From IMG/VR virus record IMGVR_UViG_3300036833_000139, positions 1 to 30,836 of that record: a DNA stretch of 30,836 bases; one strand, given 5' to 3'. The DNA comes from a virus. Its lineage: Duplodnaviria; Caudoviricetes. Positions 2,944-23,291 of the stretch are shown piece by piece. Position 1 is the stretch's first letter. Each line of letters starts with the position of its first letter. Below the pieces are notes generated by a model, which was not told the origin of the DNA, did no database searches, and worked only from the letters and a program-made list of their open reading frames with translations. The position numbers and the translations under genes were made by a program.

Positions 2944-4581
2944 ATGCCCGACATCATCGATATCTCTGGCCGGTTCAATCGGCCGACCGGCAAAAAGGCA
3001 GAAGACGCCTTGCGCATGCTCGAGGAGCTGGCGGGCGAGCGGGCGCCGTGGGAAGAGCCGGGGTTGAAGCGTCGTTCCGATAAGGTTATCGCCTTTTGCC
3101 AGGACATGACGATTACGAGCGGGCCGTTGAGCGGCAAGAAAATCACCCTCCGCCCATGGCAAAAAAAGTTCATCCGCGCGGTCTACGGCGTCGACAAGAC
3201 CGGCAATCGCCGGGTGCGCACGGCGATCCTCAGTCTTGGAAGGAAAAACGGCAAGACTCAGCTCGCTGCTTGCTTGGCGCTATGCCATCTCTCCGGCCCG
3301 GAGAGCGAGAGCCGCGGCGAGGTCTATTCGTGCGCCAACGATCGCCTGCAGGCGAGCAAGCTGTGCAACGAGATGATTGCGATGATCGTCAATCATCCGT
3401 GGCTGGCGATGCGCACGCGGGTGTTGCGCGGCCGCAAGCAGATTGATGATCTGGTCACCGAGTCGACCTATCAAGCACTGTCACGCGAAGCAAACACAAA
3501 AATGGGTTTGAACCCAAGTTTTGTTTGCTACGACGAATTGGGCTCCGCCAAGGGTCGCGACTTGTACGACGCGATGGATTCGGCGCTCGGCGGTCGCAAA
3601 GAACCGTTGTTGTTGGTGATCAGCACGCAGGCCGCCGACGACTTCGCGCCCATGTCGCAGCTGATCGACTACGGGCTCAAAATCGAACAGGGCGACATTC
3701 AAGATCCGGCGTTTCATCTGACGCTGTTCACGGCGCCGGAAAATGCTGACCCCTGGAACCCGGCCAGTTGGGAAGCCGCCAACCCGGCGCTCGGCGACTT
3801 CCTCTCGCTCGAGCACGTGGCGCGCATGGCCAAGCAGGCGCAGCGCATCCCGGCGCGCGAGAATTCCTTCCGCAATCTGGTGCTCAATCAGCGCGTCGCC
3901 GCCGAGACCCGATTTGTTGATCGCATCACCTGGAACGCCTGTGCAGGCGCGGCGGTGATTCCGCGCGGGGTGCACGTCTATGCCGGGCTCGACCTCGGCG
4001 CCACCCGCGATTTGTCGGCGCTGGTGATCGTCGCCGTTGATCCAAACGGGTGCTGGAATATCCAGCCGCATTGCTGGATTCCGGGGAAGGATCTCAAGGA
4101 GCGCAGCGATCTCGATCGCGTGCCATACGAGGCCTGGGTGCGCGACGGCGCCATCATGCCGATCGGCGAGTCGACAGACCCGAAGGTAATCGCGCACAAG
4201 ATCGCGCAGATCAACGGCATCACCCCGATCGATCTACTGGCATTTGATCGGTGGCGAATTGCTGATCTCAAACGCGAGCTGGATGCGATTGGCTGTCCGG
4301 TCGTGCTCGAGCCGTTCGGCCAAGGGTTCAAGGATATGAGTGCCGCAGTTGATATTGTTGAACGATTGCTGATTCAGAAAAAGCTCAGACACGGCGGCCA
4401 CCCGGTGCTGACATGGTGCGCGCACAACGCCGTGGTGGTGCGCGATCCGGCAGGCGGGCGCAAGTTTGATAAAGCGAAAAGCTCCGGCCGCATTGATGCG
4501 CTGGTCGCGGCGAGCATGGCGTTGAGCCTCGCGCTGACGCGGGCGCCGAAGGCGGTGGACATTGATGCGTTGATAGGATAG
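2944..4581 (+). CDS. terL: Terminase large subunit (HK97/Terminase_1 type)
   Basis: LRPWQ adenine-binding motif, Walker A LGRKNGKT, Walker B VCYDE, ISTQ coupling motif, nuclease YAGLDLG and RIDALVA. Confidence 0.97.
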   Translation: MPDIIDISGRFNRPTGKKAEDALRMLEELAGERAPWEEPGLKRRSDKVIAFCQDMTITSGPLSGKKITLRPWQKKFIRAVYGVDKTGNRRVRTAILSLGRKNGKTQLAACLALCHLSGPESESRGEVYSCANDRLQASKLCNEMIAMIVNHPWLAMRTRVLRGRKQIDDLVTESTYQALSREANTKMGLNPSFVCYDELGSAKGRDLYDAMDSALGGRKEPLLLVISTQAADDFAPMSQLIDYGLKIEQGDIQDPAFHLTLFTAPENADPWNPASWEAANPALGDFLSLEHVARMAKQAQRIPARENSFRNLVLNQRVAAETRFVDRITWNACAGAAVIPRGVHVYAGLDLGATRDLSALVIVAVDPNGCWNIQPHCWIPGKDLKERSDLDRVPYEAWVRDGAIMPIGESTDPKVIAHKIAQINGITPIDLLAFDRWRIADLKRELDAIGCPVVLEPFGQGFKDMSAAVDIVERLLIQKKLRHGGHPVLTWCAHNAVVVRDPAGGRKFDKAKSSGRIDALVAASMALSLALTRAPKAVDIDALIG

Positions 4582-7208: not shown

Positions 7209-7424
7209 ATGCCCGACGACGACCAGCAGCAAAGCTTCACGCTCGAGCGCGGGCCCGACCCCTGGCACAAGCTGCCGAGCTTGGCAGCGCGGCTCGGTGT
7301 CGAGCCTTGCAGCGGGCCGATGGCGGGTCGCGTCATCGTGAGCAATCGCGAGGGCAAGCGCTACGATTTGTTTGAGCTGGTCAACGCGTTGCTCGATCGG
7401 CTCGATCGTGCGGCCCAGGACTAA
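7209..7424 (+). CDS. Hypothetical phage protein (71 aa)
   Basis: AAGGGA upstream of ATG 7209; protein-like sequence ...GKRYDLFELVNALLDRLD. Confidence 0.65.
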   Translation: MPDDDQQQSFTLERGPDPWHKLPSLAARLGVEPCSGPMAGRVIVSNREGKRYDLFELVNALLDRLDRAAQD

Positions 7425-7662
7425 GCAAGCGCGATGACCGATCTCCCGGAATTGGTAGGTCAATTCCCTCCTGGCGAAACAGCTCTTTCAGCTGGCGCCA
7501 GCAGGCGAGGCCGCGACTGTGGTGCCAGAGGCGCGTCATCGGGCGCATGGGAAACCACGCGCGTAGGATATGCGCCCAGATGCAAGTCATTAGCCACAGT
7601 GCTCGTACGACGTTCCGCATCCGCGATGACTACCACAGGACTAAAGCAAGCGCGATGACCGA
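7416..7662. repeat. 26/27-bp direct repeats CAGGACTAA(A)GCAAGCGCGATGACCGA at 7416-7441 and 7636-7662
   Basis: Read directly; the copies differ by one A. Confidence 0.92.
7434..7658 (+). CDS. Possible leader ORF (74 aa) coupled to the zeta-like gene
   Basis: Starts at the ATG in repeat copy 1 and ends at the TGA overlapping the ATG in copy 2; peptide not recognisable. Antisense ORF 7381-7620 is an alternative. Confidence 0.3.
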   Translation: MTDLPELVGQFPPGETALSAGASRRGRDCGARGASSGAWETTRVGYAPRCKSLATVLVRRSASAMTTTGLKQAR

Positions 7663-8794
7663 CGACGTCGCCAAAGCCAACGCGCAGACGGAGTTCATGA
7701 ACGACTGCGTGCCGTACTTCATCGATGAGGGCAAGGACCAGGATCAGGCGATCGCGATCTGTCTGCATCTGTGGGAAGGCAAGCGCTGGCGCGGCATCCG
7801 CGCTCGCGCCGAGCAGCTGCAGGCCCGGCGCCGTCACGCCGACAACAAGGCCCGCTTTGCGGCGCTGCGCTATCAGCCGCATCCGTGGCGGGCGCTGCGC
7901 CAACGCGCGGCCGAGCTGCTGGTGCGGTTCGATCCCGACGAGCCGCGCGACGAATCCGGCAAATGGACCGACGGCGGCGGTGGTGGCAGCGACGGCGGCG
8001 GCAAAAAACCAGCCAGCGAGACCAAGCCCGCTGTCGCCGCACATGCCAATCCCAAGGTCAAGGAGATCATCGAGAAGGTCCCCGGCGCGCAAGCCGCGAT
8101 CGAGCGCGCTGTCGACAAGCTCGCCAGCGGCAAGCCCAGCGATGCGCCGGTCGGCGAAGGCGGCTACAAACGCTCGGATGGCTTCTACACCGCGCCGCGC
8201 CAAAAGGTGCACGCCGAGATCCTGGAGAAGATCTTCACCCCGGAGAAGATCGCTGCCGCCACGCCCAAGCCGGGCGAGCAGCCGACCGCGCATCTGCTCG
8301 GCGGCTCCGGCGGTTCCGGCAAGGGCTGGTTCACTAAGCCGGACGGCACGGTGCGCACCGACAATGCGATCTATCTGAATTCCGATGACATGAAGGCGAT
8401 GCTGCCCGACTACAAGGGCTGGAACGCGCCGTTGCTACATGAGGAATCGAGCGAGCTGCTGCGGCTGACGGAAAACATCGCCATGGCCCAAGGTCTCAAC
8501 GTCATCATCGACGGCACCATGGGCAAATACGACGGGCTGGCCAAGCGCATCGATCGCTACAAGACCGGCGGCTATCGGGTGGAAGGTCACTTCATGCGGG
8601 TGACACCGGAGACGTCAGCAACCCGCGCGCTGCAGCGGTTCGTGCGCGGCGGCGAGAGCGGCCGCTACGTGCCGCCGGAAATGCTGCTCGCGCATCCGGC
8701 GACCGCTAACTTCGAGAAGGCGCGCAGCAAGATGGACGCCTGGGAGATGTATGACAACGAGGGCACCAAACCGAAGTTTGTCAGCCGCGGCTAG
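7655..8794 (+). CDS. Zeta-toxin-family P-loop kinase with N-terminal capsid-protease-like module and DPDEPRDESGKWT motif
   Basis: LLGGSGGSGKG P-loop, YLNSDDMK, LHEESS, NVIIDGT, RALQRF...GRYVP, MYDN; N-terminal FMNDCVP...DQDQAIAICLHLW. Confidence 0.85.
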   Translation: MTDDVAKANAQTEFMNDCVPYFIDEGKDQDQAIAICLHLWEGKRWRGIRARAEQLQARRRHADNKARFAALRYQPHPWRALRQRAAELLVRFDPDEPRDESGKWTDGGGGGSDGGGKKPASETKPAVAAHANPKVKEIIEKVPGAQAAIERAVDKLASGKPSDAPVGEGGYKRSDGFYTAPRQKVHAEILEKIFTPEKIAAATPKPGEQPTAHLLGGSGGSGKGWFTKPDGTVRTDNAIYLNSDDMKAMLPDYKGWNAPLLHEESSELLRLTENIAMAQGLNVIIDGTMGKYDGLAKRIDRYKTGGYRVEGHFMRVTPETSATRALQRFVRGGESGRYVPPEMLLAHPATANFEKARSKMDAWEMYDNEGTKPKFVSRG

Positions 8795-9024
8795 TTGCGC
8801 GCGCGTTGTTTTTTCGCGATCTCTTCCGCGCACGTGATCCTGATCAGTGTTATCAACTTCTCAGCCAAATCATCCTCGCTATCATGAAGATCATAGCGAA
8901 CCGCGATCTTGACGGCTGTTACGATAAGCGCGGGAATTATATCGCCGGGATCAACAGAGGGCCGTTCGACGAGCCAAGCGATCAGCTCATTGGTCAGCTC
9001 TTGGGCGGCTTGCGGGCTGCTCAC
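8791..9024 (-). CDS. Hypothetical protein (77 aa), convergent with the zeta-like gene
   Basis: GTG at 9024 after AAAGGA; stop codons overlap in CTAG at 8791-8794. Confidence 0.6.
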   Translation of the reverse strand: MSSPQAAQELTNELIAWLVERPSVDPGDIIPALIVTAVKIAVRYDLHDSEDDLAEKLITLIRITCAEEIAKKQRARN

Positions 9025-9029
9025 CAGGG

Positions 9030-9197
9030 CTAATCCTTTTTCGGTTTTGATTTGCGCTTGGCATATTTGTCGTACAGCTCCTGGAACGCCTCTGGCACCT
9101 CGCCGGGGTCCCAATCGCTGTCGAAGTTCTCGAGCGGAATCGGATTGCCGTTGCCGTCGACGTAGCCGTCCGGCTTTTTGTCTTTGTCGTCACTCAT
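9030..9197 (-). CDS. Small acidic protein (55 aa), not in the ORF track
   Basis: Manual translation MSDDKDKKPDGYVDGNGNPIPLENFDSDWDPGEVPEAFQELYDKYAKRKSKPKKD; ATGA overlap with HTH gene, GAGGA upstream. Confidence 0.75.
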   Translation of the reverse strand: MSDDKDKKPDGYVDGNGNPIPLENFDSDWDPGEVPEAFQELYDKYAKRKSKPKKD

Positions 9198-9385
9198 GTG
9201 AAGTCCTCTGCGGTTAAGTTATGCTTTACCATATAGTCTAGCACCTTGGCAATCAGCGGCGGCACGGGCAGCTCGCCAAGCGCATAGCGCCGCGAGGTAC
9301 GCGGATCGATCGCGAGGAAATGCGCCGCCGTCACCTGATTGAATCCGATGCGATCGAGCGCGCGTTGGTATTGTTTCGCGGTCAT
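9194..9385 (-). CDS. Small XRE/Cro-like helix-turn-helix regulator (63 aa)
   Basis: MTAKQYQRALDRIGFNQVTAAHFLAIDPRTSRRYALGELPVP; ATGA coupling, GGAGA RBS. Confidence 0.85.
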   Translation of the reverse strand: MTAKQYQRALDRIGFNQVTAAHFLAIDPRTSRRYALGELPVPPLIAKVLDYMVKHNLTAEDFT

Positions 9386-9594
9386 GGGGTGGTCTCCGCA
9401 AACGGGCGCCCGTGATAACCATCGAGGAATGCAACCAGCTCGGCGGCGTCGTAGGCCTGCAGGCTGACGACGTACCACGTCAACGGATGGCCGACCGCGC
9501 GCACCCGGCGCCCGCGCCAGTACGCCCGACGCGCAGCCGAGACCAAGCCCGCTTCCGCGAGCTTGGCCCGATACTCGGCCATTGTCTGTTCCAT
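9382..9594 (-). CDS. Hypothetical phage protein
   Basis: Abuts upstream stop and is coupled to the HTH gene. Confidence 0.6.
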   Translation of the reverse strand: MEQTMAEYRAKLAEAGLVSAARRAYWRGRRVRAVGHPLTWYVVSLQAYDAAELVAFLDGYHGRPFAETTP

Positions 9595-9978
9595 CTAGGC
9601 GCCGTGCACCGCGAGATACTTCGCTGCGCCCGCCTTTTCGGCTTCCGCCTTCACCACTTTGCTGACGCCGGGAAACCGCACAACCTTGCCGTCGCCGCTA
9701 ATCTTGAATGAGCCGCGCCGCACAACCGGATCGCCGACCCAGTCGGGATGATCGCCGAACCCGCGCGCAATCGCTTCGGCCTTGCGCTCCTCGTCAGTCA
9801 ACGTCTTGACCGTCTTGAACACCGTTCCGGTGATCGAGCCGTCATCGTGCTCGACCCGCGACGTTTCATAAAAACCGTCCGACAAGCCGTTGCTCGAGTG
9901 ATTGGTGGTCCCGCGCCGGGCGATCTCGCCCAACGCCTGGAAAACGTAACCGGCTTTCGCCGCGTAGCTGTAACCCAT
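9595..9978 (-). CDS. Hypothetical phage protein (127 aa)
   Basis: GAGGA RBS before ATG; globular-looking sequence (FYETSRVEHDDGSITGTVFK...GSFKISGDGKVVRFP). Confidence 0.75.
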   Translation of the reverse strand: MGYSYAAKAGYVFQALGEIARRGTTNHSSNGLSDGFYETSRVEHDDGSITGTVFKTVKTLTDEERKAEAIARGFGDHPDWVGDPVVRRGSFKISGDGKVVRFPGVSKVVKAEAEKAGAAKYLAVHGA

Positions 9979-10014
9979 TGTGTCCTCGTTTCAGTTAGTG
10001 GTGGTAGTTGCTGC

Positions 10015-10332
10015 TCACTCGATCTCCATCGGCAACCCGACGCTTTTACGCAGCGCGCGGTAGCGAGGTTCGGCGAGTTGTTTGCGGAGTAAATTACGTT
10101 CCGCGTCGATGTGCTTTTGCGCGTAGGCAACCGCTTCTTCGCGCGTGGCAAATGCGACGCCCTTGACCGGGTTCCAAGTGTGGAACCTGCTGATCCGATC
10201 CGGCCGGTCATAGTTGATGACGGGCACATAGGGATAAGCTGGATTGCGTCCGCGTTTGGCGGCCGACGCGCGGCCATACCAACGCTCAGCGGCAATGGCC
10301 TCGATCGCAGTCATCAGTTCAACGCGGTTCAT
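10015..10332 (-). CDS. Hypothetical phage protein (105 aa), first gene of leftward operon
   Basis: CAGGA upstream of ATG 10332; RGRNPAYPYVPVI...FATREEAVAYAQKHI. Confidence 0.7.
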   Translation of the reverse strand: MNRVELMTAIEAIAAERWYGRASAAKRGRNPAYPYVPVINYDRPDRISRFHTWNPVKGVAFATREEAVAYAQKHIDAERNLLRKQLAEPRYRALRKSVGLPMEIE

Positions 10333-10439
10333 CTCGAATTCCTGGTGCGGGTGTTCCGGCGAGACCCGCTCACGCCGCCCGCCAGCTCCGCTGCCGAGTC
10401 CGGGCCACCGCCGTCGCGATGGCAATCTCTCACGCTCTT

Positions 10440-10467
10440 AATATAGGGCATCACGCCCTATACGCAA
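10440..10467 (-). promoter_or_regulatory. Sigma70-like promoter (TTGCGT-N16-TATATT) with operator palindrome TATAGGGC-N5-GCCCTATA (10442-10462)
   Basis: Perfect 8-bp inverted repeat read directly, spanning the -35/-10 spacer. Confidence 0.75.
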
Positions 10468-10470
10468 GTG

Positions 10471-10490
10471 GTGCGGTGAGCATGCCGCAC
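10471..10490 (+). promoter_or_regulatory. RNA hairpin GTGCGGT-GAGCAT-GCCGCAC upstream of the protease-capsid RBS
   Basis: 7-bp stem (one G-U); the same loop motif recurs three times before the internal capsid start. Confidence 0.6.
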
Positions 10491-10516
10491 GTATCCCCAT
10501 ACCGATGGAGGCAGAA

Positions 10517-13105
10517 ATGCCCATGAAACCGCACAAGGGTGAAAGCCAGGACGCGTTCATGAAGCGTTGCGTGCCCGACATGATGGGCGACGGTAAGCGT
10601 GAGCAGGACCAAGCCGTCGCTGCTTGCATGTCGATCTGGCGCGACGACAAGGGGCAGAAGCAACCCGAGGGCAAAGACTTTGCCGACCCCGGTTATCGCG
10701 GCGACGGCGGCAAGCGCTATGTGATCGATACTGCCGATCAGGTGCGCACGGCATGGCACAACATTCATCGCGCCGGTGAAATCTATACCAAGGCGCAGGA
10801 CGATCGCATCAAGGCGCGCATCATCTCGGCCTGGAAAGTGCTGATCGACAAGGCCGGGCCGCCCGACCTGGGCGATGCCAGCAACCGCGCGGCGTTGCGC
10901 CAGCATGTCGTGACGGTGACCAAACAGGACTGCCCAGAAGTCGACGCCGACGAAAGCCACGACGACTACATCGAGCGCTGCATGTCGGAAATGGGCGACA
11001 TGGCCGACGATGACGCCGAGGAAGCGTGTCAGCTGGCCTGGGAAGAATCCAACGACAATGAGCGTAGTGGCGACGCTGTGCTGCTGCACAAGACGATGGC
11101 GACGCCGAGCACCGGCATGGAGTTCGTGCTGTCGGACGGGACCCCGGATCGGTTTGGTGACGTGATCGAACCGCTTGGCTGGAAAATCGACACCTTCGCT
11201 TCCAACCCCATTGCCCTCTTCAATCACAATACTTCGTTCGTTATCGGCCGCTGGCGGAACCTGCGCGTCACCGACAAGGATCTGCGCGGCGATCTCGAGC
11301 TGGCGCCCAAGGGCACCAGCGACCGCATCGATGAGATCCGCAAACTGATTGAGGCCGACATTTTACGCGCGACTAGCGTCGGCTTCCGGCCGATCGCATC
11401 CGCGCCGATCAACGCTAAGGACCCGTGGGGCGGTGTGCACTACACCGAACACGAGTTGGTCGAGACCAGCGTGGTCGCTGTCCCAGCCAATCCCAATGCG
11501 CTGGCGGTAGCCAAAGGCTTAGGCGTTTCTGGGAATACGTTGCGCATGGTGTTTGGCGAGCAAGCCGACAAGGGCACCATCGTGCAGCGCGAGTATCGAG
11601 CGCAACGGGGCGAGCACGCCGACACACCAAAGCGCGAGACGACGACGACCAAACAAACTGGCGAGCATGCCGATCCCAAACAGATTGGAGCACAACGGAG
11701 GACTCCCATGTTGCTCTCGCAGCGAATTCAGGAACTGGAAAAGAGCTTACTGGCGGATCAAGACGATCTCGACCGCCATCTGGAAACCATTGACGACGAC
11801 AATCCGACCGAAGAGCAGATGGCGCTGACCGAAGATAAGACCACTAAGATCGAGAACAAGCAGCGTCAGCTCAACAACCTCAAGACGGTCGAGGCCAAGA
11901 ACGGCAACGGTGCGATCGACACCTCGACTGCGACGGCCGTCGCTCGGCGTAAGAGCAACGAGATCCGGCTTCCGGCCGAGCTGGCCCCGCGTCCGGCCAA
12001 GAAGGCTGACCCGCTCGATTTCATCGTGCGCGCCGCCATCGTCCGTGCCAAATCAAAGGTCGAAGGCGTCAGCATCGACGATATGCGGCGCAAGATCTAT
12101 GGCGACGACGAAGCCACCCGCATCATGACCGATCTGGTGTTGAAGGCGGCGACCGCTCCGGCGGAAACCACCGTCACGGGGTGGGCGGCTGAACTGGTCC
12201 GCACCGTGTGGGCGGCGTGGATGGACGTCTTGCTGCCTGTTTCGGTATTGCCAAAGCTAAGCGCGATCGGTCTCGGCCTCACGTTCGGACAGAACGGCCG
12301 CATTGTCATTCCGACGCGCTCGCTGACGCCGTCGATCGCCGGTGCGTTTGTTGGTGAAGGTCAACCAATTCCGGTGCGTCAGGGCGCCTTCACCTCGCAG
12401 ACCCTGACTCCCAAGAAACTTGCTGTTATCACTTCCTGGACTAAAGAGATGGAGGACTTTTCCATTCCAGCAATTGAGGGTCTGCTACGGCAGGCGATCA
12501 TCGAAGACACGGCGGTGGCGCTCGATACGGTATTGCTCGACAACAACGTCGCCACCGCGATCCGGCCACCCGGCTTGCGCTCTTACGGCGCTGGTCTGAC
12601 GCCGAGTGCAACGACTCCATTCGCCAACTTTGTCGCCGATTACAACGCGCTCTATGGTGCGCTGCTGACAGCGACCAAGGGTAACGTGCGCCGCCCGGTG
12701 ATCTTGCTCAACCCGACGGAGGTGCAGTCACTCAGCATGCTGCAACCGCCCAACGCAGCGGCGCCGTTATTCCCGTTCATGACGATGCTGGATAACAACC
12801 GGCTGGTCCGCGCCGATCTTGTTGAATCGTCGACGGTGACTGCGGGAACGGCGATCATGCTCGACGCGGCCGATTTCACCACCGCCGGTGCTGAAGGTCC
12901 GCGCATGGACATTTCAGATACTGCGACTCTGCATATGGAAGATACGGCTCCGGCGGATATCGTGTCCGGATCGCCCGGTGTTGTCGCTACTCCGGTCAAA
13001 TCGATGTGGCAGACCGACAGCCTCGCCCTCCGCATGATCATGCGCCTCAATTGGATCATGCGGCGCCCGGTGGTCGCCTGGATGAGCGGCGTCACTTGGA
13101 AGTAA
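10517..13105 (+). CDS. Prohead protease (HK97/U35 type) fused to major capsid protein, with N-terminal Cys/Trp modules and a DUF6582-like domain
   Basis: GGAGG RBS at 10507-10511; protease motifs DRFGDVI, LFNH, ATSVGF, LVETSVVAVPANPNA; capsid motifs GEGQPIP, LTPKKLAVIT, WQTDSLALR. Confidence 0.95.
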   Translation: MPMKPHKGESQDAFMKRCVPDMMGDGKREQDQAVAACMSIWRDDKGQKQPEGKDFADPGYRGDGGKRYVIDTADQVRTAWHNIHRAGEIYTKAQDDRIKARIISAWKVLIDKAGPPDLGDASNRAALRQHVVTVTKQDCPEVDADESHDDYIERCMSEMGDMADDDAEEACQLAWEESNDNERSGDAVLLHKTMATPSTGMEFVLSDGTPDRFGDVIEPLGWKIDTFASNPIALFNHNTSFVIGRWRNLRVTDKDLRGDLELAPKGTSDRIDEIRKLIEADILRATSVGFRPIASAPINAKDPWGGVHYTEHELVETSVVAVPANPNALAVAKGLGVSGNTLRMVFGEQADKGTIVQREYRAQRGEHADTPKRETTTTKQTGEHADPKQIGAQRRTPMLLSQRIQELEKSLLADQDDLDRHLETIDDDNPTEEQMALTEDKTTKIENKQRQLNNLKTVEAKNGNGAIDTSTATAVARRKSNEIRLPAELAPRPAKKADPLDFIVRAAIVRAKSKVEGVSIDDMRRKIYGDDEATRIMTDLVLKAATAPAETTVTGWAAELVRTVWAAWMDVLLPVSVLPKLSAIGLGLTFGQNGRIVIPTRSLTPSIAGAFVGEGQPIPVRQGAFTSQTLTPKKLAVITSWTKEMEDFSIPAIEGLLRQAIIEDTAVALDTVLLDNNVATAIRPPGLRSYGAGLTPSATTPFANFVADYNALYGALLTATKGNVRRPVILLNPTEVQSLSMLQPPNAAAPLFPFMTMLDNNRLVRADLVESSTVTAGTAIMLDAADFTTAGAEGPRMDISDTATLHMEDTAPADIVSGSPGVVATPVKSMWQTDSLALRMIMRLNWIMRRPVVAWMSGVTWK
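11708..13105 (+). CDS. Major capsid protein from an in-frame internal start (coiled-coil delta domain plus HK97 fold)
   Basis: GGAGGACTCCCATG at 11697-11710, in frame; MLLSQRIQELEK begins a coiled coil. Confidence 0.7.
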   Translation: MLLSQRIQELEKSLLADQDDLDRHLETIDDDNPTEEQMALTEDKTTKIENKQRQLNNLKTVEAKNGNGAIDTSTATAVARRKSNEIRLPAELAPRPAKKADPLDFIVRAAIVRAKSKVEGVSIDDMRRKIYGDDEATRIMTDLVLKAATAPAETTVTGWAAELVRTVWAAWMDVLLPVSVLPKLSAIGLGLTFGQNGRIVIPTRSLTPSIAGAFVGEGQPIPVRQGAFTSQTLTPKKLAVITSWTKEMEDFSIPAIEGLLRQAIIEDTAVALDTVLLDNNVATAIRPPGLRSYGAGLTPSATTPFANFVADYNALYGALLTATKGNVRRPVILLNPTEVQSLSMLQPPNAAAPLFPFMTMLDNNRLVRADLVESSTVTAGTAIMLDAADFTTAGAEGPRMDISDTATLHMEDTAPADIVSGSPGVVATPVKSMWQTDSLALRMIMRLNWIMRRPVVAWMSGVTWK

Positions 13106-13570: not shown

Positions 13571-15001
13571 ATGAACCTGCTCGGCAGATTCTCACGGAAC
13601 TGGAGGACCCCGGTCGCGAAAGCGGCCGAGGGCGAATATCGCCCCGGCCCGTGGAATCTGCCGATCACGAACGGCTGGTTGCCTGCCCAAATCGGCAATT
13701 CGATCAATTGGTGGCAACTCGGTTACGACCCGATCCTGGCGGGCAGCAAGCTCGCCATCATCGAGGCGTGTGTCGGTGCCTATAGCCAGACACTGGCGAT
13801 GTGCCCAGGCGACCATTGGCGCAGTTTGCCGAACGGCGGGCGCGAGCGCGTCACCACCTCGGCGCTCTCACGCATTCTACGCAAGCCGAACGATTATCAA
13901 TCCATTTCCGATTTGATGCTGAATGCGGTGCGCCAGCTCTACCTCGAGGGCAACGCCTATCTGTGGTGTCCGCGCAACGCCCGCTTTGAGATCCAGGAAC
14001 TGCACCTGATGGATAACCGCTACTCGCGCGCCATGATCGACGGCGAGGGCGAGGTGCATTACCAACTCGGCGGGAATGCCATCATTCTAAACCGGTTCGG
14101 CTCGCTACTGTCGCGGGTGCCGATGCGCGACGTGCTGCATATCAAGCTGCACTGCGATCAGCTGCGCGATCCGCTACGCGGCGAAAGCCCGCTCACCAGC
14201 GCCTATCTCGACGTCGCCACCGGCATGTCGATCCGCGCTCAGCAGGCAACGTTCTACCAAAACCAAGCCAAGCCCGGCACTGTGCTGGCGACCGATCTGC
14301 AGCTCGACAAGGATCAGGTGTCGGCGCTGCGCGATCGCTGGACTGAGCAGACATCCGGCAGCAACGTCGGCGGCACGCCGATTCTCACCAACGGGCTAAA
14401 ACCGCTGGCGCTGCCGAACGTCGCCTTCCGCGATGCGCAGATGGCCGAAGTGTTGAAGCTGACCGACGCCGATATCGCCATGGCGTTCCGGGTGCCGCCC
14501 GCGATCCTTGGCATTGCCCAAGGTCCGCGCGAGACCGAAGCGCTGATGCAAAGCTGGATTGCCTCCGGGCTCGGCTTTTGCTTGAACCACGTCGAGGAAG
14601 CGTTCGGCCTCACCTTCGAGCTGAAGGGGGTCCCGGACGAGTACGTGGAGTTTGATACCAAAGCACTTCTGCGGTCAGCTTTTGTGAACCGCATCGAAGG
14701 TCTGACGAAGGCCGTCATCGGCGGTGTCATGTCGCCGAACGAAGCCAGAAATTCTGAGGATCTTCCTAACACACCGTTTGGAGACGAGCCGAGGGTTCAA
14801 CAACAAGTGGTCCCATTGTCGCAAGTGGGTAAAACGCCTGCAGCTCCCGCCGCTCCGCCCGCGCCGACAGCCCCACGGCCGCCGCCGCCAAGCAGGAGCT
14901 TGTTTGATGGACAACGAGACGCCTACGTTCGAAGCATGCTCAACCGATCCAAACAGATCGAACGCGAGCATCAGCGACGCATTTCAGGAGATGTTGTTTG
15001 A
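13571..15001 (+). CDS. Portal protein (HK97 family)
   Basis: RKPNDYQS, LYLEGNAY, DVLHIK, LRGESPL, IAMAFRVPPAILG, GVMSPNEAR. Confidence 0.96.
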   Translation: MNLLGRFSRNWRTPVAKAAEGEYRPGPWNLPITNGWLPAQIGNSINWWQLGYDPILAGSKLAIIEACVGAYSQTLAMCPGDHWRSLPNGGRERVTTSALSRILRKPNDYQSISDLMLNAVRQLYLEGNAYLWCPRNARFEIQELHLMDNRYSRAMIDGEGEVHYQLGGNAIILNRFGSLLSRVPMRDVLHIKLHCDQLRDPLRGESPLTSAYLDVATGMSIRAQQATFYQNQAKPGTVLATDLQLDKDQVSALRDRWTEQTSGSNVGGTPILTNGLKPLALPNVAFRDAQMAEVLKLTDADIAMAFRVPPAILGIAQGPRETEALMQSWIASGLGFCLNHVEEAFGLTFELKGVPDEYVEFDTKALLRSAFVNRIEGLTKAVIGGVMSPNEARNSEDLPNTPFGDEPRVQQQVVPLSQVGKTPAAPAAPPAPTAPRPPPPSRSLFDGQRDAYVRSMLNRSKQIEREHQRRISGDVV

Positions 15002-16367: not shown

Positions 16368-17024
16368 ATGCAACAGATCCTCAATGTCCTGGTGAAGGCT
16401 GATACCTACGACCTCGTCACGCTCGAGGGGATGAAGGCCATGTTGCTGATCCCGCCAACGGACACCAGCAAGGACATCTTGCTGACGGAGTTGATTACCG
16501 TCGTCAGCGAAACCGTCGCCAAAATGTGCAATCGGGTGTTCAGCTACGAGAAGGTGCGCGAGCAGTTCTATCAGCTCGAGGACGGCAATAGCAGCCGTCT
16601 CTATCTGTCGCGCTGGCCGGTGAAGTTCGCAGACATCGAGAGCATCAATCGCGACGATGATGATTACGATTTGCTACCTGACAACCCGACGCGCTGGCTG
16701 CTCGAGGAAGAGACGGGGATGCTCTACAGCTACCCGGCCAGTGGTTACTGGTATGGTACGGTCGATGTGATTTATTCCGGCGGCTACGTGCTGCCAGATG
16801 AAGCGCCGGGCCCGCTCAAGTTCGCGGTCGCGGGCGTGATCCGCGAATCCTACATGGCCTGGATTCGCAACCCGGCACTGTTTGGCGTGCGCCAGCTCGG
16901 GCACAAGGAAGCGCGCATCGCTTATTACGATCCCACCAAGTTGGGCGTTGCGCTCGGCTCGCCAGAGACTTGGCAAGCCGTGCAAAGCGTTCTCGACGCC
17001 AGATACACACGATTTTGGGTGTAG
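16368..17024 (+). CDS. Head-tail connector/adaptor (gp6-like)
   Basis: LVTLEGMKAML...MCNRVF...LYLSRWPV...VIYSGGY..P.APGPLKFAV; position after portal. Confidence 0.8.
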   Translation: MQQILNVLVKADTYDLVTLEGMKAMLLIPPTDTSKDILLTELITVVSETVAKMCNRVFSYEKVREQFYQLEDGNSSRLYLSRWPVKFADIESINRDDDDYDLLPDNPTRWLLEEETGMLYSYPASGYWYGTVDVIYSGGYVLPDEAPGPLKFAVAGVIRESYMAWIRNPALFGVRQLGHKEARIAYYDPTKLGVALGSPETWQAVQSVLDARYTRFWV

Positions 17025-17026
17025 CG

Positions 17027-18070
17027 ATGAACAAACAACTCGACGACCGTCGTCCTGCCATGGCGCTGCCGCATCCCGGCGAGCATTTCTGGCGCGCCTT
17101 TGCTGCCAAGGTACGCGGCTCGATCCTCGGCGAGCTTGCCGAGGACTTGCTGCGCGAGCGGCACCCCGACGATCACATCGCACCGTTGCTGCTACGCGCC
17201 GCGTCGGCGCCCGCCAAAACCACCGTGCCCGGCTGGGCGGCGGAGCTAGCGCGCAAAGCTGTGTCGCAGGCGATTGAGGACGTCGTCAGCATGAGCGCGG
17301 CGCGGCATGTGATGGACGCCGGAGCGCTGCGCATCGATCTCGGTCGCTTTGCCAGTATCGTTGTGCCGGGGCGTTCGAGCACCATAGCCGACGCCGGTCA
17401 GTGGGTGGCGGAAGGCGCGCCGATTCCGGTGCGGCAATTCCAGCTGCCCGGCTCGACCTTGACCGCGCACAAGCTGGCGGTAATCGCCACCTTCACCCGC
17501 GAGATGAGCGATAGTTCCAACATTGAGGACGTGATCAAGGCGCTGATCACAGAAGCCGCCGGACCGGCGCTCGATGCGGCGATCTTCTCCACCGCCGCGG
17601 GCACGGCCGCGCGCTCGCCCGGCATTCTGCACGGTGTGACCGGGCTGACGCCGTCGACGGGCGCCGCCTATGACGATTGCGGCGCCGATCTCGGCGCCTT
17701 GATCGGCGATCTTGCCAGCCGCAACGGCGGCGCAAATGCGGTATTTGTCGCCAATCCGGCGCAGGCGATGACCATTCGGTTTTTCAGCGGCACCCAGCTC
17801 GACGCTTGGGGCAGCGTGCCGTTAGCCGGGGGCACCGTACTTGCGCTCGAGCCAGCCTCGCTCGCCATCATGCTCGGGGTCGAGACCTTCGACGTCGCCG
17901 ACGTCGGCACCCTGCACATGGAAGACACCACGCCCGGCGATATTTCCGGAGGATCGACGCCAGTCAAAAGCCTGTTCCAGACCGATACGCTGGCGCTGCG
18001 AATGATATTGCGCGGCGATTGGGCAATGCGCGCGCCGCACGTCGCCTACATGACCGGCGTGTCCTGGTGA
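17027..18070 (+). CDS. Second major-capsid-family protein (paralogue lacking most of the coiled-coil delta domain)
   Basis: RAASAPAKTTVPGWAAEL, EGAPIPVRQ, HKLAVIATFTREM, TLHMEDT, TPVKSLFQTDTLALRM align with the main capsid protein. Confidence 0.92.
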   Translation: MNKQLDDRRPAMALPHPGEHFWRAFAAKVRGSILGELAEDLLRERHPDDHIAPLLLRAASAPAKTTVPGWAAELARKAVSQAIEDVVSMSAARHVMDAGALRIDLGRFASIVVPGRSSTIADAGQWVAEGAPIPVRQFQLPGSTLTAHKLAVIATFTREMSDSSNIEDVIKALITEAAGPALDAAIFSTAAGTAARSPGILHGVTGLTPSTGAAYDDCGADLGALIGDLASRNGGANAVFVANPAQAMTIRFFSGTQLDAWGSVPLAGGTVLALEPASLAIMLGVETFDVADVGTLHMEDTTPGDISGGSTPVKSLFQTDTLALRMILRGDWAMRAPHVAYMTGVSW

Positions 18071-20781: not shown

Positions 20782-21978
20782 GTGCGCACCGCCGTCGAAA
20801 CAACCGTGGATGACTTGCCGGATCTCGATCCGGTGGTCGCGCACGAAACAACGGCCTACGGCTGGCGGGGGCTGACGGCGCACGGCGAGGTGTTGGAGGT
20901 CAAACGTTCGAACGGCCACCCGATCGCGGTGCCAATCGAACTGCTGGTGACACACGGCGGCCGGTCGATCGGCCGCCGCGCGGTCACCAATGAGCTGGCC
21001 ATCAACATTGACGACTATCTCGCGCACTTCAATCGCATGGTCGCGCTGCATCGCGCCAACCAGTTCAACGAGGCGCTGGTCGAGGCGGACGCAACGCTGC
21101 GGATCGCGCCGACGCTGCGCGCGCGCTTCAATCGCGCGATGGTGCTGCTCGCCGTCGGTCATTGGCGCGAGGGCTTCGCGGAATACTGGAGCTGCGAGCA
21201 GGAATCTTCGCTCATGCGTCCGCCGGTGCGCGCCGCGCTCGATGCGGGCTTGCAGCCATGGCACGGCGAAGATCTGTGCGGTAAGCGGCTTTTGCTGATT
21301 CACGCGCACGGCTTTGGCGACAGCATCCAGACGCTGCGCTACGTGCCCGCGCTTCAAGCGATGGGCGCCGACGTGGTCATGCTGATGCCGCGCGAGCTAG
21401 AGCGGTTGGCGGCGCAATGCGGTTCGGTTGTGGGGGCGCTGCAGGACGCTGATTTCTTCTGTCCGATGCTGCATCTGCTGCACGTACTGCAAGTGCATCC
21501 CGACCACGTGTCCGGGAAACCCTATCTCAACGTCGATCGTGCGCTGGTTGATCGGTGGTCCAAACGTATCGATGCGGACCGCCGCAACATTGGCCTTGCT
21601 TGGTCGATCGGTAACCCGAGCCTCAGTGATTATCCACGCGAGATCTCGCTCAGCGACCTGATCTCGCCGCTCGGCGACGCGCAACTCTATAGCGTGCAAG
21701 CCCAATATCAGGAGGAGGCGGCGCGCATCGGCGTCAAAGCGTTTGAATTTGAGGACTTCGCCGACTGTGCCGCGCTGATGTGGCGGATGCAGCAAATCAT
21801 CAGCGTCGACACCGCGGCGTTGCACCTCGCCGGTGCGATCGGTCATCCGCGCGTGGTCGGCCTGCTGTCGCATTGGGCGAGCTGGCGCTGGATCGCGCCT
21901 TGGTACGCGAACGTCAGCCTGTGTCGCCAGCAAGTGCCGGACGATTGGGCGAGCGCCCTAAATCAAGCGCAAATGTAA
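20782..21978 (+). CDS. TPR-containing GT-B glycosyltransferase (GT9/heptosyltransferase-like)
   Basis: TPR-like helices (ARFNRAMVLLAVGHWREGFAEY), PWHGEDLCGKRLLLIHAHGFGDSIQTLRY, IGLAWS.GNP, IISVDTAALHLAGAIG. Confidence 0.9.
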   Translation: MRTAVETTVDDLPDLDPVVAHETTAYGWRGLTAHGEVLEVKRSNGHPIAVPIELLVTHGGRSIGRRAVTNELAINIDDYLAHFNRMVALHRANQFNEALVEADATLRIAPTLRARFNRAMVLLAVGHWREGFAEYWSCEQESSLMRPPVRAALDAGLQPWHGEDLCGKRLLLIHAHGFGDSIQTLRYVPALQAMGADVVMLMPRELERLAAQCGSVVGALQDADFFCPMLHLLHVLQVHPDHVSGKPYLNVDRALVDRWSKRIDADRRNIGLAWSIGNPSLSDYPREISLSDLISPLGDAQLYSVQAQYQEEAARIGVKAFEFEDFADCAALMWRMQQIISVDTAALHLAGAIGHPRVVGLLSHWASWRWIAPWYANVSLCRQQVPDDWASALNQAQM

Positions 21979-22547
21979 TGCCCCTGCAACGCGTCTCACA
22001 AACTTCGATCGGTGCGGGGCGCATCCGAGGTCCGGTCAGCCAATATCTAAATCGGAACGAGACGGAGTTGCTGGTTGCGCTGGTGCGCAGCGTGATGCCG
22101 CGCGTGATGATCGAGTTCGGCTGCAATCTCGGGTTCACCGCAAAGCGCGTGCTCGACAACGTGCCGTCGCTCGAATGCTACATCGGCATCGATGTGCCAG
22201 CGGGGCACGAAACCACGCTGACATGTCAACGAAGCGAAGTGCCGACCGCCGCCGGTTCGTACGTCGCCAGCGATGAACGGTTCTGGTTGTTAATGGTAGA
22301 GGAACGGCTGACCGCCGATCAGCTAGAGCCATGTGACGCGGTATTCATCGACGGCGATCACAGCGAGCAGGGCGTGAGTCGCGACAGCGATCTGGCGCGC
22401 GCGTTGGTTCGGCCGGGCGGCATCATTGTTTGGCACGACGCGGGAAACCCGGCGGTCGAGGTCACCGCAACGCTCGAACGGCTGGCCGATCAGGGCTGGC
22501 GCATCAAACACATCGAGAATAGTTGGCTCGCGTTCATGCGGACGTAG
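21978..22547 (+). CDS. Class I SAM-dependent methyltransferase (Methyltransf_24-like)
   Basis: TAATG coupling; MIEFGCNLG, YIGID, DAVFIDGDHS, VRPGGIIVWHD. Confidence 0.9.
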   Translation: MPLQRVSQTSIGAGRIRGPVSQYLNRNETELLVALVRSVMPRVMIEFGCNLGFTAKRVLDNVPSLECYIGIDVPAGHETTLTCQRSEVPTAAGSYVASDERFWLLMVEERLTADQLEPCDAVFIDGDHSEQGVSRDSDLARALVRPGGIIVWHDAGNPAVEVTATLERLADQGWRIKHIENSWLAFMRT

Positions 22548-22673: not shown

Positions 22674-23291
22674 CTATTCGGTGTACCGGCCGTGCTTGTA
22701 GTTAGGATTGTTCTCGCCGGTCACGCCGCCGCGCTCAGTGAGTTTGTCGCGCATTTTTTGCTTGGCAGCTTCCGACGTCAGCTTTCCGTAGTTGGGATTC
22801 TTGGCGCCAGCATAGTCGCGGTTCTTGGTCTTGATGCCGCGCTTGACATCGCTCGATGAGCGTTCGCGCTCTGCAGGATCAGTGTAACGACGCAACGCCG
22901 CTTGTCGCATCTTCTCGCGCTGCTCGGGAGTTTTGGGAATGCCTTTGAAACGGCCAGCAGCTTCTTTTGCTTTTAGCTTCCGAAATGCCTCGGCATGTTT
23001 GTAGCCGATGCAGGATTTTTGACCGCCGCCAGCGCGGTTCCAGCCAATCCCCGGACGCGGCCGTAAACGCGCTTCTAGTTCGAGCGCTTCGATACCCGGA
23101 CCAACAAAAAGAACTTGGACCCTGAAATCGGGCGGCAGCGAATGCGCGCCCTTACCGTTCCCGCGCCGATGAGCAGCAATTCGGACGGGGAGATGCGCGG
23201 TGATCCCGACGTAGCCGTGATGCCACGGACAAATGCAACGCTCGTCGTGCAGCCAATAAACGAAGGTCTGTTGGTTGTTGTCAGGCAGCAT
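22674..23291 (-). mobile_element. Free-standing GIY-YIG homing endonuclease with NUMOD3 repeats
   Basis: FVYWL...GYVGIT...R...H, E..L motif; KGIPKTPEQREKMR, NPNYGK..SEAAKQKM, GENNPNYKHG; GGAGG RBS; antisense to tail operon. Confidence 0.88.

Follow-up and report, generated by a model that had tools for sequence, protein, structure and literature searches.

The zeta-toxin-like kinase and the protease-capsid polyprotein encoded on a tailed-phage fragment from soil metagenomes (IMG/VR record IMGVR_UViG_3300036833_000139; the whole stretch of 30,836 nucleotides, or 30.8 kb, hereafter the window, is 41% complete) share an N-terminal two-cysteine module of 35 residues, termed M. The original prediction had taken M for a portable address label that packages the kinase into the phage head for injection, independently of MuF. 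Our analysis revealed M to be a head-linked, portable cassette that most cargo lacks, and the common mark of the predicted cargo in this clade to be a second, short motif, termed D, which follows a basic helical leader in the kinase (Table 1). Judged by sequence, the leader together with D is likely to be the loading element; for M, the role of a released passenger or of an auxiliary hook is likely. We give about an even chance to a MuF-independent array of head cargo, in which leader and D would recruit the enzymes, the fused protease would trim them, the enzymes would be ejected and M would travel as a passenger.

The similarity between the two N-termini was confirmed in detail. The predicted 15 identities in 31 columns between residues 11-40 of the kinase (7685-7774) and residues 15-45 of the polyprotein (10547-10639) proved to be exact, and BLASTP aligned the modules with 16/35 identical residues at E 2e-7. 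In a shuffle control, the real score of the kinase module was 87 against a null of 39 ± 5, and none of 1000 shuffled kinases reached 87. The proposed third, diverged copy was found to be real as the second copy in the polyprotein at 10952-11041 (12/35 identical, tblastn E 2.6e-4 within the window, 0/2000 shuffles); tblastn revealed no further copies in the window, the next matches having E ≥ 0.06. The shared segment lies equally far from both start methionines provided that the polyprotein begins at ATG 10517; this codon is closely preceded by GGAGG and agrees with the MPMKP start of most homologs. The kinase start was assigned to ATG 7655, because the sibling phage L002 lacks the insert upstream of it and the codons of the module differ mainly synonymously between the two phages (8 synonymous and 4 conservative changes). 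The insert of 221 bp (7434-7654, absent from L002) is flanked by an exact 19-nt direct repeat at 7423-7441 and 7644-7662, the latter including the kinase start codon. On the same evidence, the alternative start at ATG 7547 was ruled out. The kinase M was 36% identical to the copy in its own polyprotein and lay on a separate branch, which ruled out recent copying from there.

Modelling of M from the single sequence predicted a helix-turn-helix hairpin with helices at residues 2-24 and 29-42 and a pLDDT near 90 across residues 11-40. The two cysteines were invariant across alignments of 29 and 80 M copies, with varying spacing between them, and may pair as a disulphide or a metal site; a near-invariant QAxA face was also evident. 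A model of both M copies in tandem (homolog L019, 41-row alignment) reached a pTM of 0.47, without support for packing. Searches with M in Pfam (80 copies, best E 0.025) and NCBIfam gave no significant family, and a PDB sequence search retrieved partial helices only (best E 0.02). Foldseek with the M model returned nothing at E ≤ 0.001 from either the PDB or BFVD, the top BFVD rows including XkdF proteins and proteins of 41-57 amino acids. Only unnamed clusters were obtained from the ESM Atlas; the nearest Pfam-bearing cluster, at 0.77, had DUF6496 on 15% of its members, and DUF6496 itself matched none of 80 M copies at E ≤ 1. The profile phrog_2423 weakly matched 4/29 M copies (best E 0.0009), so that a link to the small DUF6496/phrog_2423 phage proteins through the second helix is a lead only. 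GenBank phages gave no match to the first polyprotein copy of M, the whole kinase or the D region, and rows for the kinase M only at E ≥ 0.9.

A profile of 29 M rows matched 2,253 protein clusters (50% identity) at E ≤ 0.001, and the survey of fusion partners rests on the best 150 of these. Pfam assignment of the 76 longest of the listed matches yielded the S78 protease in 29 (one weak), XkdF in four, and ClpP and Mu-I in one each; DUF192, KTSC, DUF5661 and a glycosyltransferase occurred as single partners, and many of the other matches were N-terminal fragments. Among the 133 new matches, 18 were of 70 amino acids or fewer, some of them probably fragments. A DNA scan with an alignment of kinase-type M confirmed 293 viral and 168 metagenome stretches, and the 80 kept from each gave 85 M host clusters. 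Protease or capsid proteins accounted for 61 of these (48 labelled by Pfam, four as clade polyproteins, making 52, and nine by BLAST); the others were eight cargo-type, five stand-alone and 11 unassigned or truncated clusters. The stand-alone M genes are complete open reading frames (ORFs) of 56-72 amino acids. Inspection by eye of five stand-alone contexts placed three close to head or structural genes, one next to a putative small terminase and one amid genes for ribonucleotide reductase. M was usually N-terminal, also internal and C-terminal, and often in tandem, with up to seven copies in one protein (P0183); on XkdF proteases it neighbours other small modules (Hva1_TUDOR, DUF3721, zinc ribbons). 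All 74 polyprotein-module matches carried 1-3 copies of M, as did 72 of the 73 polyprotein clusters in the retrieved loci, with 1-4 copies. The predicted portability of M and its tie to head proteins were thereby borne out: the partners are mostly proteases, from four families, and capsids, joined by several unrelated enzymatic cargoes, and non-head contexts do not predominate.

Three small proteins with an N-terminal M (L150 5977-6600, L152 5971-6666 and P0337) continue with Ile-Asp-x-Phe-Leu-x-Glu, which by eye resembles T4-type leader sites. A third small mobile module, EFFY...DAxLHxxIL, was seen alone, on cargo and at the polyprotein N-terminus (L008 7276-7569; N-termini of P0014, P0015 and P0073). 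The chain of M with a glycosyltransferase fragment (P0322) may be a chimera of assembly or gene calling and was not used as support.

A role of M as the address label of the kinase was not supported. It was present in 8/56 related kinases, and in a tree of the kinase domain (55 of the 56, one being too short) seven of the eight bearers formed one well-supported clade, whose sister kinases are without M; the eighth has an internal copy of another M type. The cargo subtype of M forms one branch (12 rows, SH-aLRT 98, weak evidence in view of 44 columns and a label set by sequence motif) and is attached, N-terminally or internally, to at least five unrelated downstream domains. From the few kinases bearing M and this range of attached domains, M was concluded to be a portable but optional cassette. 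Tagged ORFs other than the polyprotein were counted in loci L001-L099 plus the window, considering only those bearing D or M: D was found in 37/37 clusters and M in 2/37, both of which also had D. In addition, M is internal in several cargoes, stands alone as an ORF and is kept on the capsid-fused polyproteins, where a label would be needless because the protease is already fused to the capsid.

The motif D was not part of the original prediction, and neither was the DUF6582-like domain between the polyprotein copies of M. In the 79 loci retrieved by the polyprotein query alone, 28 non-polyprotein ORFs with D were found in 21 loci, along with four with M. All six D matches in four near-complete relatives lay within ~11 kb upstream of the polyprotein. 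Of the cargo-type M host clusters, six of eight carried D as well, one was ended by a contig edge and one was without D. The domains downstream of D comprised ART, GNAT, zeta, oxidoreductases and unassigned ones, with a Pfam family for 12/37 D-tagged clusters at E ≤ 0.01, several of them below cut-off; the cargo families as a whole included ART, GNAT, Acb1 and zeta. D-led cargo was fused at the polyprotein N-terminus in 7/73 clusters. A thioredoxin-reductase-like flavoprotein (TrxB-like) domain was D-tagged in P0043 and P0202, in the former ahead of the polyprotein, and in another phage (L017) D was found in a Mu-type portal fusion ahead of ART. Single-polypeptide chains of the order Acb1-M-D-kinase (P0091) and Acb1-M-D-ART (P0201) also occur, Acb1 being an anti-CBASS enzyme. 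In the manner of phage polyvalent and head-associated effectors, the enzyme domains are shuffled and lie amid the genes for terminase, portal and capsid, and some are fused to head proteins.

The junctions of the polyprotein suggest how such proteins may be processed. The capsid start was preceded by Lys or Arg in 74/74 distinct homolog contexts, mostly with a hydrophobic residue at -3. In the polyprotein of the window, sites of the junction type are Lys140 (before the second M), Lys196 (before the protease), Lys337 (after the protease) and Lys547 (before the capsid), among 15 matches to the hydrophobic-x-Lys/Arg motif in all. The same motif preceded D in 49/111 contexts against a background of 9.8%, and Lys or Arg was found 4-5 residues ahead of the core of cargo-type M in 12/14 contexts. 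Of five matches in the kinase, one marks the start of M (Lys7) and another that of D (Arg91). M and D thus follow sites like the polyprotein junctions, and cleavage may occur there; if made, cuts at Lys7 and Arg91 would leave M at the start of one product and D-kinase as another, parting M from the enzyme.

No MuF domain (PF04233) was detected in the window, which is 41% complete, or in five related records, four of them ≥90% complete, using a search that detected it in 5/14 controls. A MuF-dependent route was ruled out on this basis, and the predicted independence from MuF stands for the window and the four near-complete relatives.

In the MuF-independent array that we favour, the kinase gene is one of a variable set of enzyme genes that this clade of soil phages has between the terminase and the protease-capsid gene. 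The polyprotein would assemble the prohead, so that 1-4 M copies per capsid subunit would lie inside. Cargo would be recruited via the basic leader and D, or by direct fusion to polyprotein or portal, and would be trimmed at hydrophobic-x-Lys/Arg sites by the protease that the phage itself encodes; cuts at Lys7 and Arg91 would release M together with the leader and yield a D-kinase product. The kinase would then be ejected with the DNA and may phosphorylate a nucleotide-sugar or a related host metabolite, and free M would stay in the head as a small peptide of high copy number, comparable to IPI of T4, which any head protein could carry. The occurrence of M on various head proteins, its stand-alone genes, its tandem amplification and its retention where no label is needed are traits of a passenger.

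Several points weigh against this array. Packaging, cleavage and kinase activity are all predictions. The value of 37/37 for D is inflated because loci L001-L020 were retrieved by a query containing D, and untagged cargo is invisible in it because only tagged ORFs entered the count. The D profile detected only 35/56 kinases; variants of D are present in ~8 further ones, and several of the remainder look, by eye, like fragments. A fifth relative (87% complete) gave no D match. Junction motifs are short and common and were missing from 62/111 D contexts, and only the capsid-start count is unbiased, because the logos for protease start and protease end were selected on Lys/Arg. Finally, M favours protease N-termini, and the preponderance of protease and capsid proteins among its host clusters fits docking equally well.

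Docking is accordingly the first alternative to be weighed: M may be an optional hook that binds the prohead interior or the M copies of the polyprotein, boosts the loading of protease and cargo, and is then cut off. We consider this possible, if on the unlikely side. It would explain why M sits, mostly N-terminally and in tandem, on S78, XkdF, Mu-I and ClpP-type proteases (35/76 of the longest matches), all of which are bound to enter the prohead, and why 61/85 host clusters are protease or capsid proteins; the invariant cysteines, the QAxA face and the single cargo-type branch on unrelated domains also speak for it. However, the clustering of that branch is partly circular because the branch was labelled by sequence motif, M is missing from 48/56 kinases including the sister group, most cargo-type hosts also carry D, and M is superfluous on a capsid-fused protease and found alone and internally. 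A broader version, in which M would be a lineage-independent prohead docking domain of four protease families and, in its cargo form, of enzymes, and phages lacking MuF would load through a transplantable M hook plus the D tag, appeared doubtful.

Alternatively, M could serve the maturation protease in assembly or as part of its pro-domain, be it as chaperone, scaffold aid or activity brake, with the cargo copies as functionless by-products of recombination among adjacent genes of the head region. Proteases do dominate the distribution of M, the cargo region is highly recombinogenic, as evident from polyprotein fusions and the repeat-flanked insert just ahead of the kinase, and the gain of M by kinases maps to one recent clade. 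This explanation was nevertheless judged improbable: the kinase M is of a distinct cargo subtype, only 36% identical to the polyprotein copy, its codon changes relative to the sibling are synonymous or conservative, and M occurs at N-terminal, internal and C-terminal positions of proteases of different folds. S78 and ClpP proteases, for instance, are not alike in fold. That the kinase is a late cytoplasmic enzyme, for example one blocking cell-wall precursors to aid lysis, which shares its motifs through co-location in a late operon, would agree with the minus-strand ORF block separating it from the polyprotein and with the passages reporting that zeta kinases block the synthesis of the cell wall and bring about lysis (PMC5512222), but is likewise improbable given that the same D motif leads domains covalently fused to polyprotein and portal, that the kinase domain has its closest PHROG match in a 'minor head protein' (phrog_16619, E 2e-12) and that MuF-zeta fusions are described in the same source.

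The kinase domain was clearly assigned to PF06414 (E 2.4e-28, 99.4 bits against a cut-off of 22.3). Like zeta toxins and the PezT-type UDP-GlcNAc kinases, it has the P-loop Lys (Lys223) and a DGD-like Asp (Asp244) in alignable positions, and we take the Asp aligned to Asp244 to be catalytic in PezT and zeta. Unlike in PezT, to which the similarity is distant (E 0.0015), the residue after the P-loop Lys is Gly224 and not Ser/Thr; among 54 homologs this position was Gly in 20, Ser/Thr in 29 and unparsed in five. The PezT equivalog NF041574 scored 14.4 against a cut-off of 470, and no antitoxin family was found among the neighbouring ORFs scanned against PHROGs.

In the polyprotein, the S78 protease (PF04586) and the HK97-fold capsid (PF05065) were above cut-off in one ORF, which also matched phrog_617 at E 6e-75. 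The model NF045541, for a protease, scaffold and capsid in one gene, scored 38.5 against a cut-off of 525. The window is ordered as large terminase, a collagen-repeat gene, kinase, minus-strand ORF block, polyprotein, portal, a second capsid-like gene and a contractile tail. The second HK97-fold capsid-like gene (16970-18070, plus strand) is without a protease, matched phrog_617 (E 7e-18) and TIGR01554 (above cut-off), and carries a Leu-Leu-Arg/Ala junction of its own; many relatives likewise have a second, stand-alone capsid gene of ~360 amino acids. The minus-strand block of small ORFs between kinase and polyprotein (8791-10425, one ORF being helix-turn-helix-like) is mostly kept in L002 and L003, with individual genes exchanged. 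A GIY-YIG/NUMOD3 endonuclease-like gene (22674-23291, minus strand) precedes the sheath gene, and the tail module includes glycosyltransferase-like and methyltransferase genes at 20782-22547 (plus strand). A promoter scan remained at chance level, and no RNA holder was listed. Because the polyprotein homologs carry names from Bradyrhizobium and Xanthobacteraceae records, the host probably belongs to this group.

Table 1. Coordinates of the main features in the window.
Feature	Position	Strand	Remark
Large terminase	2944..4581	+	Upstream border of the variable cargo region
Predicted cargo gene, 379 aa: M, basic helical leader, D motif, Gly linker, zeta-like P-loop kinase	7655..8794	+	
M, cargo subtype, in the kinase	7676..7777 (aa 8-41; Cys18, Cys36)	+	Directly after a putative Val-Ala-Lys/Ala junction
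Arg-rich helical leader, aa 43-91	7781..7927	+	Net charge +12; ends in a putative Leu-Val-Arg junction
D motif, FDPxEPRDxxGKWT, then Gly-rich	7928..7978	+	
Zeta-toxin-like kinase domain	8264..8692	+	P-loop with Lys223-Gly224; alignment with PezT places Asp244 at the second Asp of its DGD motif
Polyprotein: M copy 1, DUF6582-like, M copy 2, S78 protease, scaffold, HK97-fold capsid	10517..13105	+	ORF open from 10505
M copy 1 in the polyprotein	10520..10642	+	Near-neutral charge
DUF6582-like domain between the two M copies	10673..10870	+	E 0.001, under the Pfam cut-off; stronger in homologs
M copy 2 in the polyprotein	10931..11044	+	Acidic, net charge -14; after a putative Val-Thr-Lys junction
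S78 prohead protease domain	11093..11515	+	Between putative Leu-His-Lys and Val-Ala-Lys junctions
Predicted mature major capsid protein	12146..13105	+	Begins after Val-Leu-Lys
Portal	13571..15001	+	No MuF gene found adjoining

The targeting of internal proteins has been described for other phages. According to the passages concerned, capsid-targeting sequences (CTS) of 10-19 residues direct the internal proteins of T4 as propeptides that are removed by gp21 (PMC9026906), and the first 30 residues of DarB of P1 package a reporter (PMC9024508). The proteins analysed here are similar to T4 IPI-III and DarB, as far as these are described there, in that unrelated proteins have common N-terminal elements ending in a short, here putative, protease-type site, and the small high-copy internal proteins of T4 offer a model for free M. 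They differ from the T4 system in the HK97-type head, the fused protease-capsid and the putative Lys/Arg sites in place of L/I-X-E. M differs from a CTS as a predicted folded hairpin of 35 residues that is also found on the protease and alone, and that is not common to the cargo, as the kinase and tagged-cluster counts given above revealed. A CTS is N-terminal on its cargo; M is so in this kinase, and it is internal in P0091, P0201, P0202, L202 and L209. For HK97, the passage available speaks just of 'a segment of the GP4 protease'. The original prediction had assumed N-terminal targeting there. Targeting of this protease is reportedly C-terminal (Duda, Oh and Hendrix, 2013), and the premise would then be wrong.

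Among the MuF effectors and polyvalent proteins described, zeta-like kinases are fused to MuF, and Nudix or 2H domains are joined to MuF, to the portal or to the head protease (PMC5512222, PMC9503650). The cargo classes here are related, with zeta-like kinase, ART, GNAT and 2H among head genes and with portal and protease fusions; unlike there, MuF was not found, and the cargo forms an array of separate genes marked by the short D motif. The passages concerned, from papers whose supplements may list such architectures, mention neither M nor D. Full-text search for D-like strings gave unrelated papers only among the matches listed, and literature searches for the motifs or the phage clade returned nothing relevant. 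Fusions of protease, scaffold and HK97-fold capsid in one gene, as here and in NF045541, are described for the group of Pseudomonas phage MD8 (PMC8508860); the present polyproteins differ in carrying 1-4 M hairpins, an optional DUF6582 and sometimes whole enzymes ahead of the protease. The concept of head cargo is thus already known, and the M domain and the D-tagged, MuF-free arrays are absent from the literature searched.

M emerges as an uncatalogued small domain that occurs in at least 2,253 protein clusters and is linked to the maturation of phage heads. At the onset of infection, soil phages whose hosts are probably Bradyrhizobium and its relatives may deliver ARTs, acetyltransferases, anti-CBASS enzymes and kinases by a route independent of MuF. 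With proviruses of this clade already recorded and Bradyrhizobium genomes among the named sources of homologs, the loading code is open to direct test. Should M, or the leader with D, package a reporter, a new cargo-loading tag for HK97-type capsids would be at hand; if M is itself payload, it would be a candidate high-copy, IPI-like counter-defence peptide.

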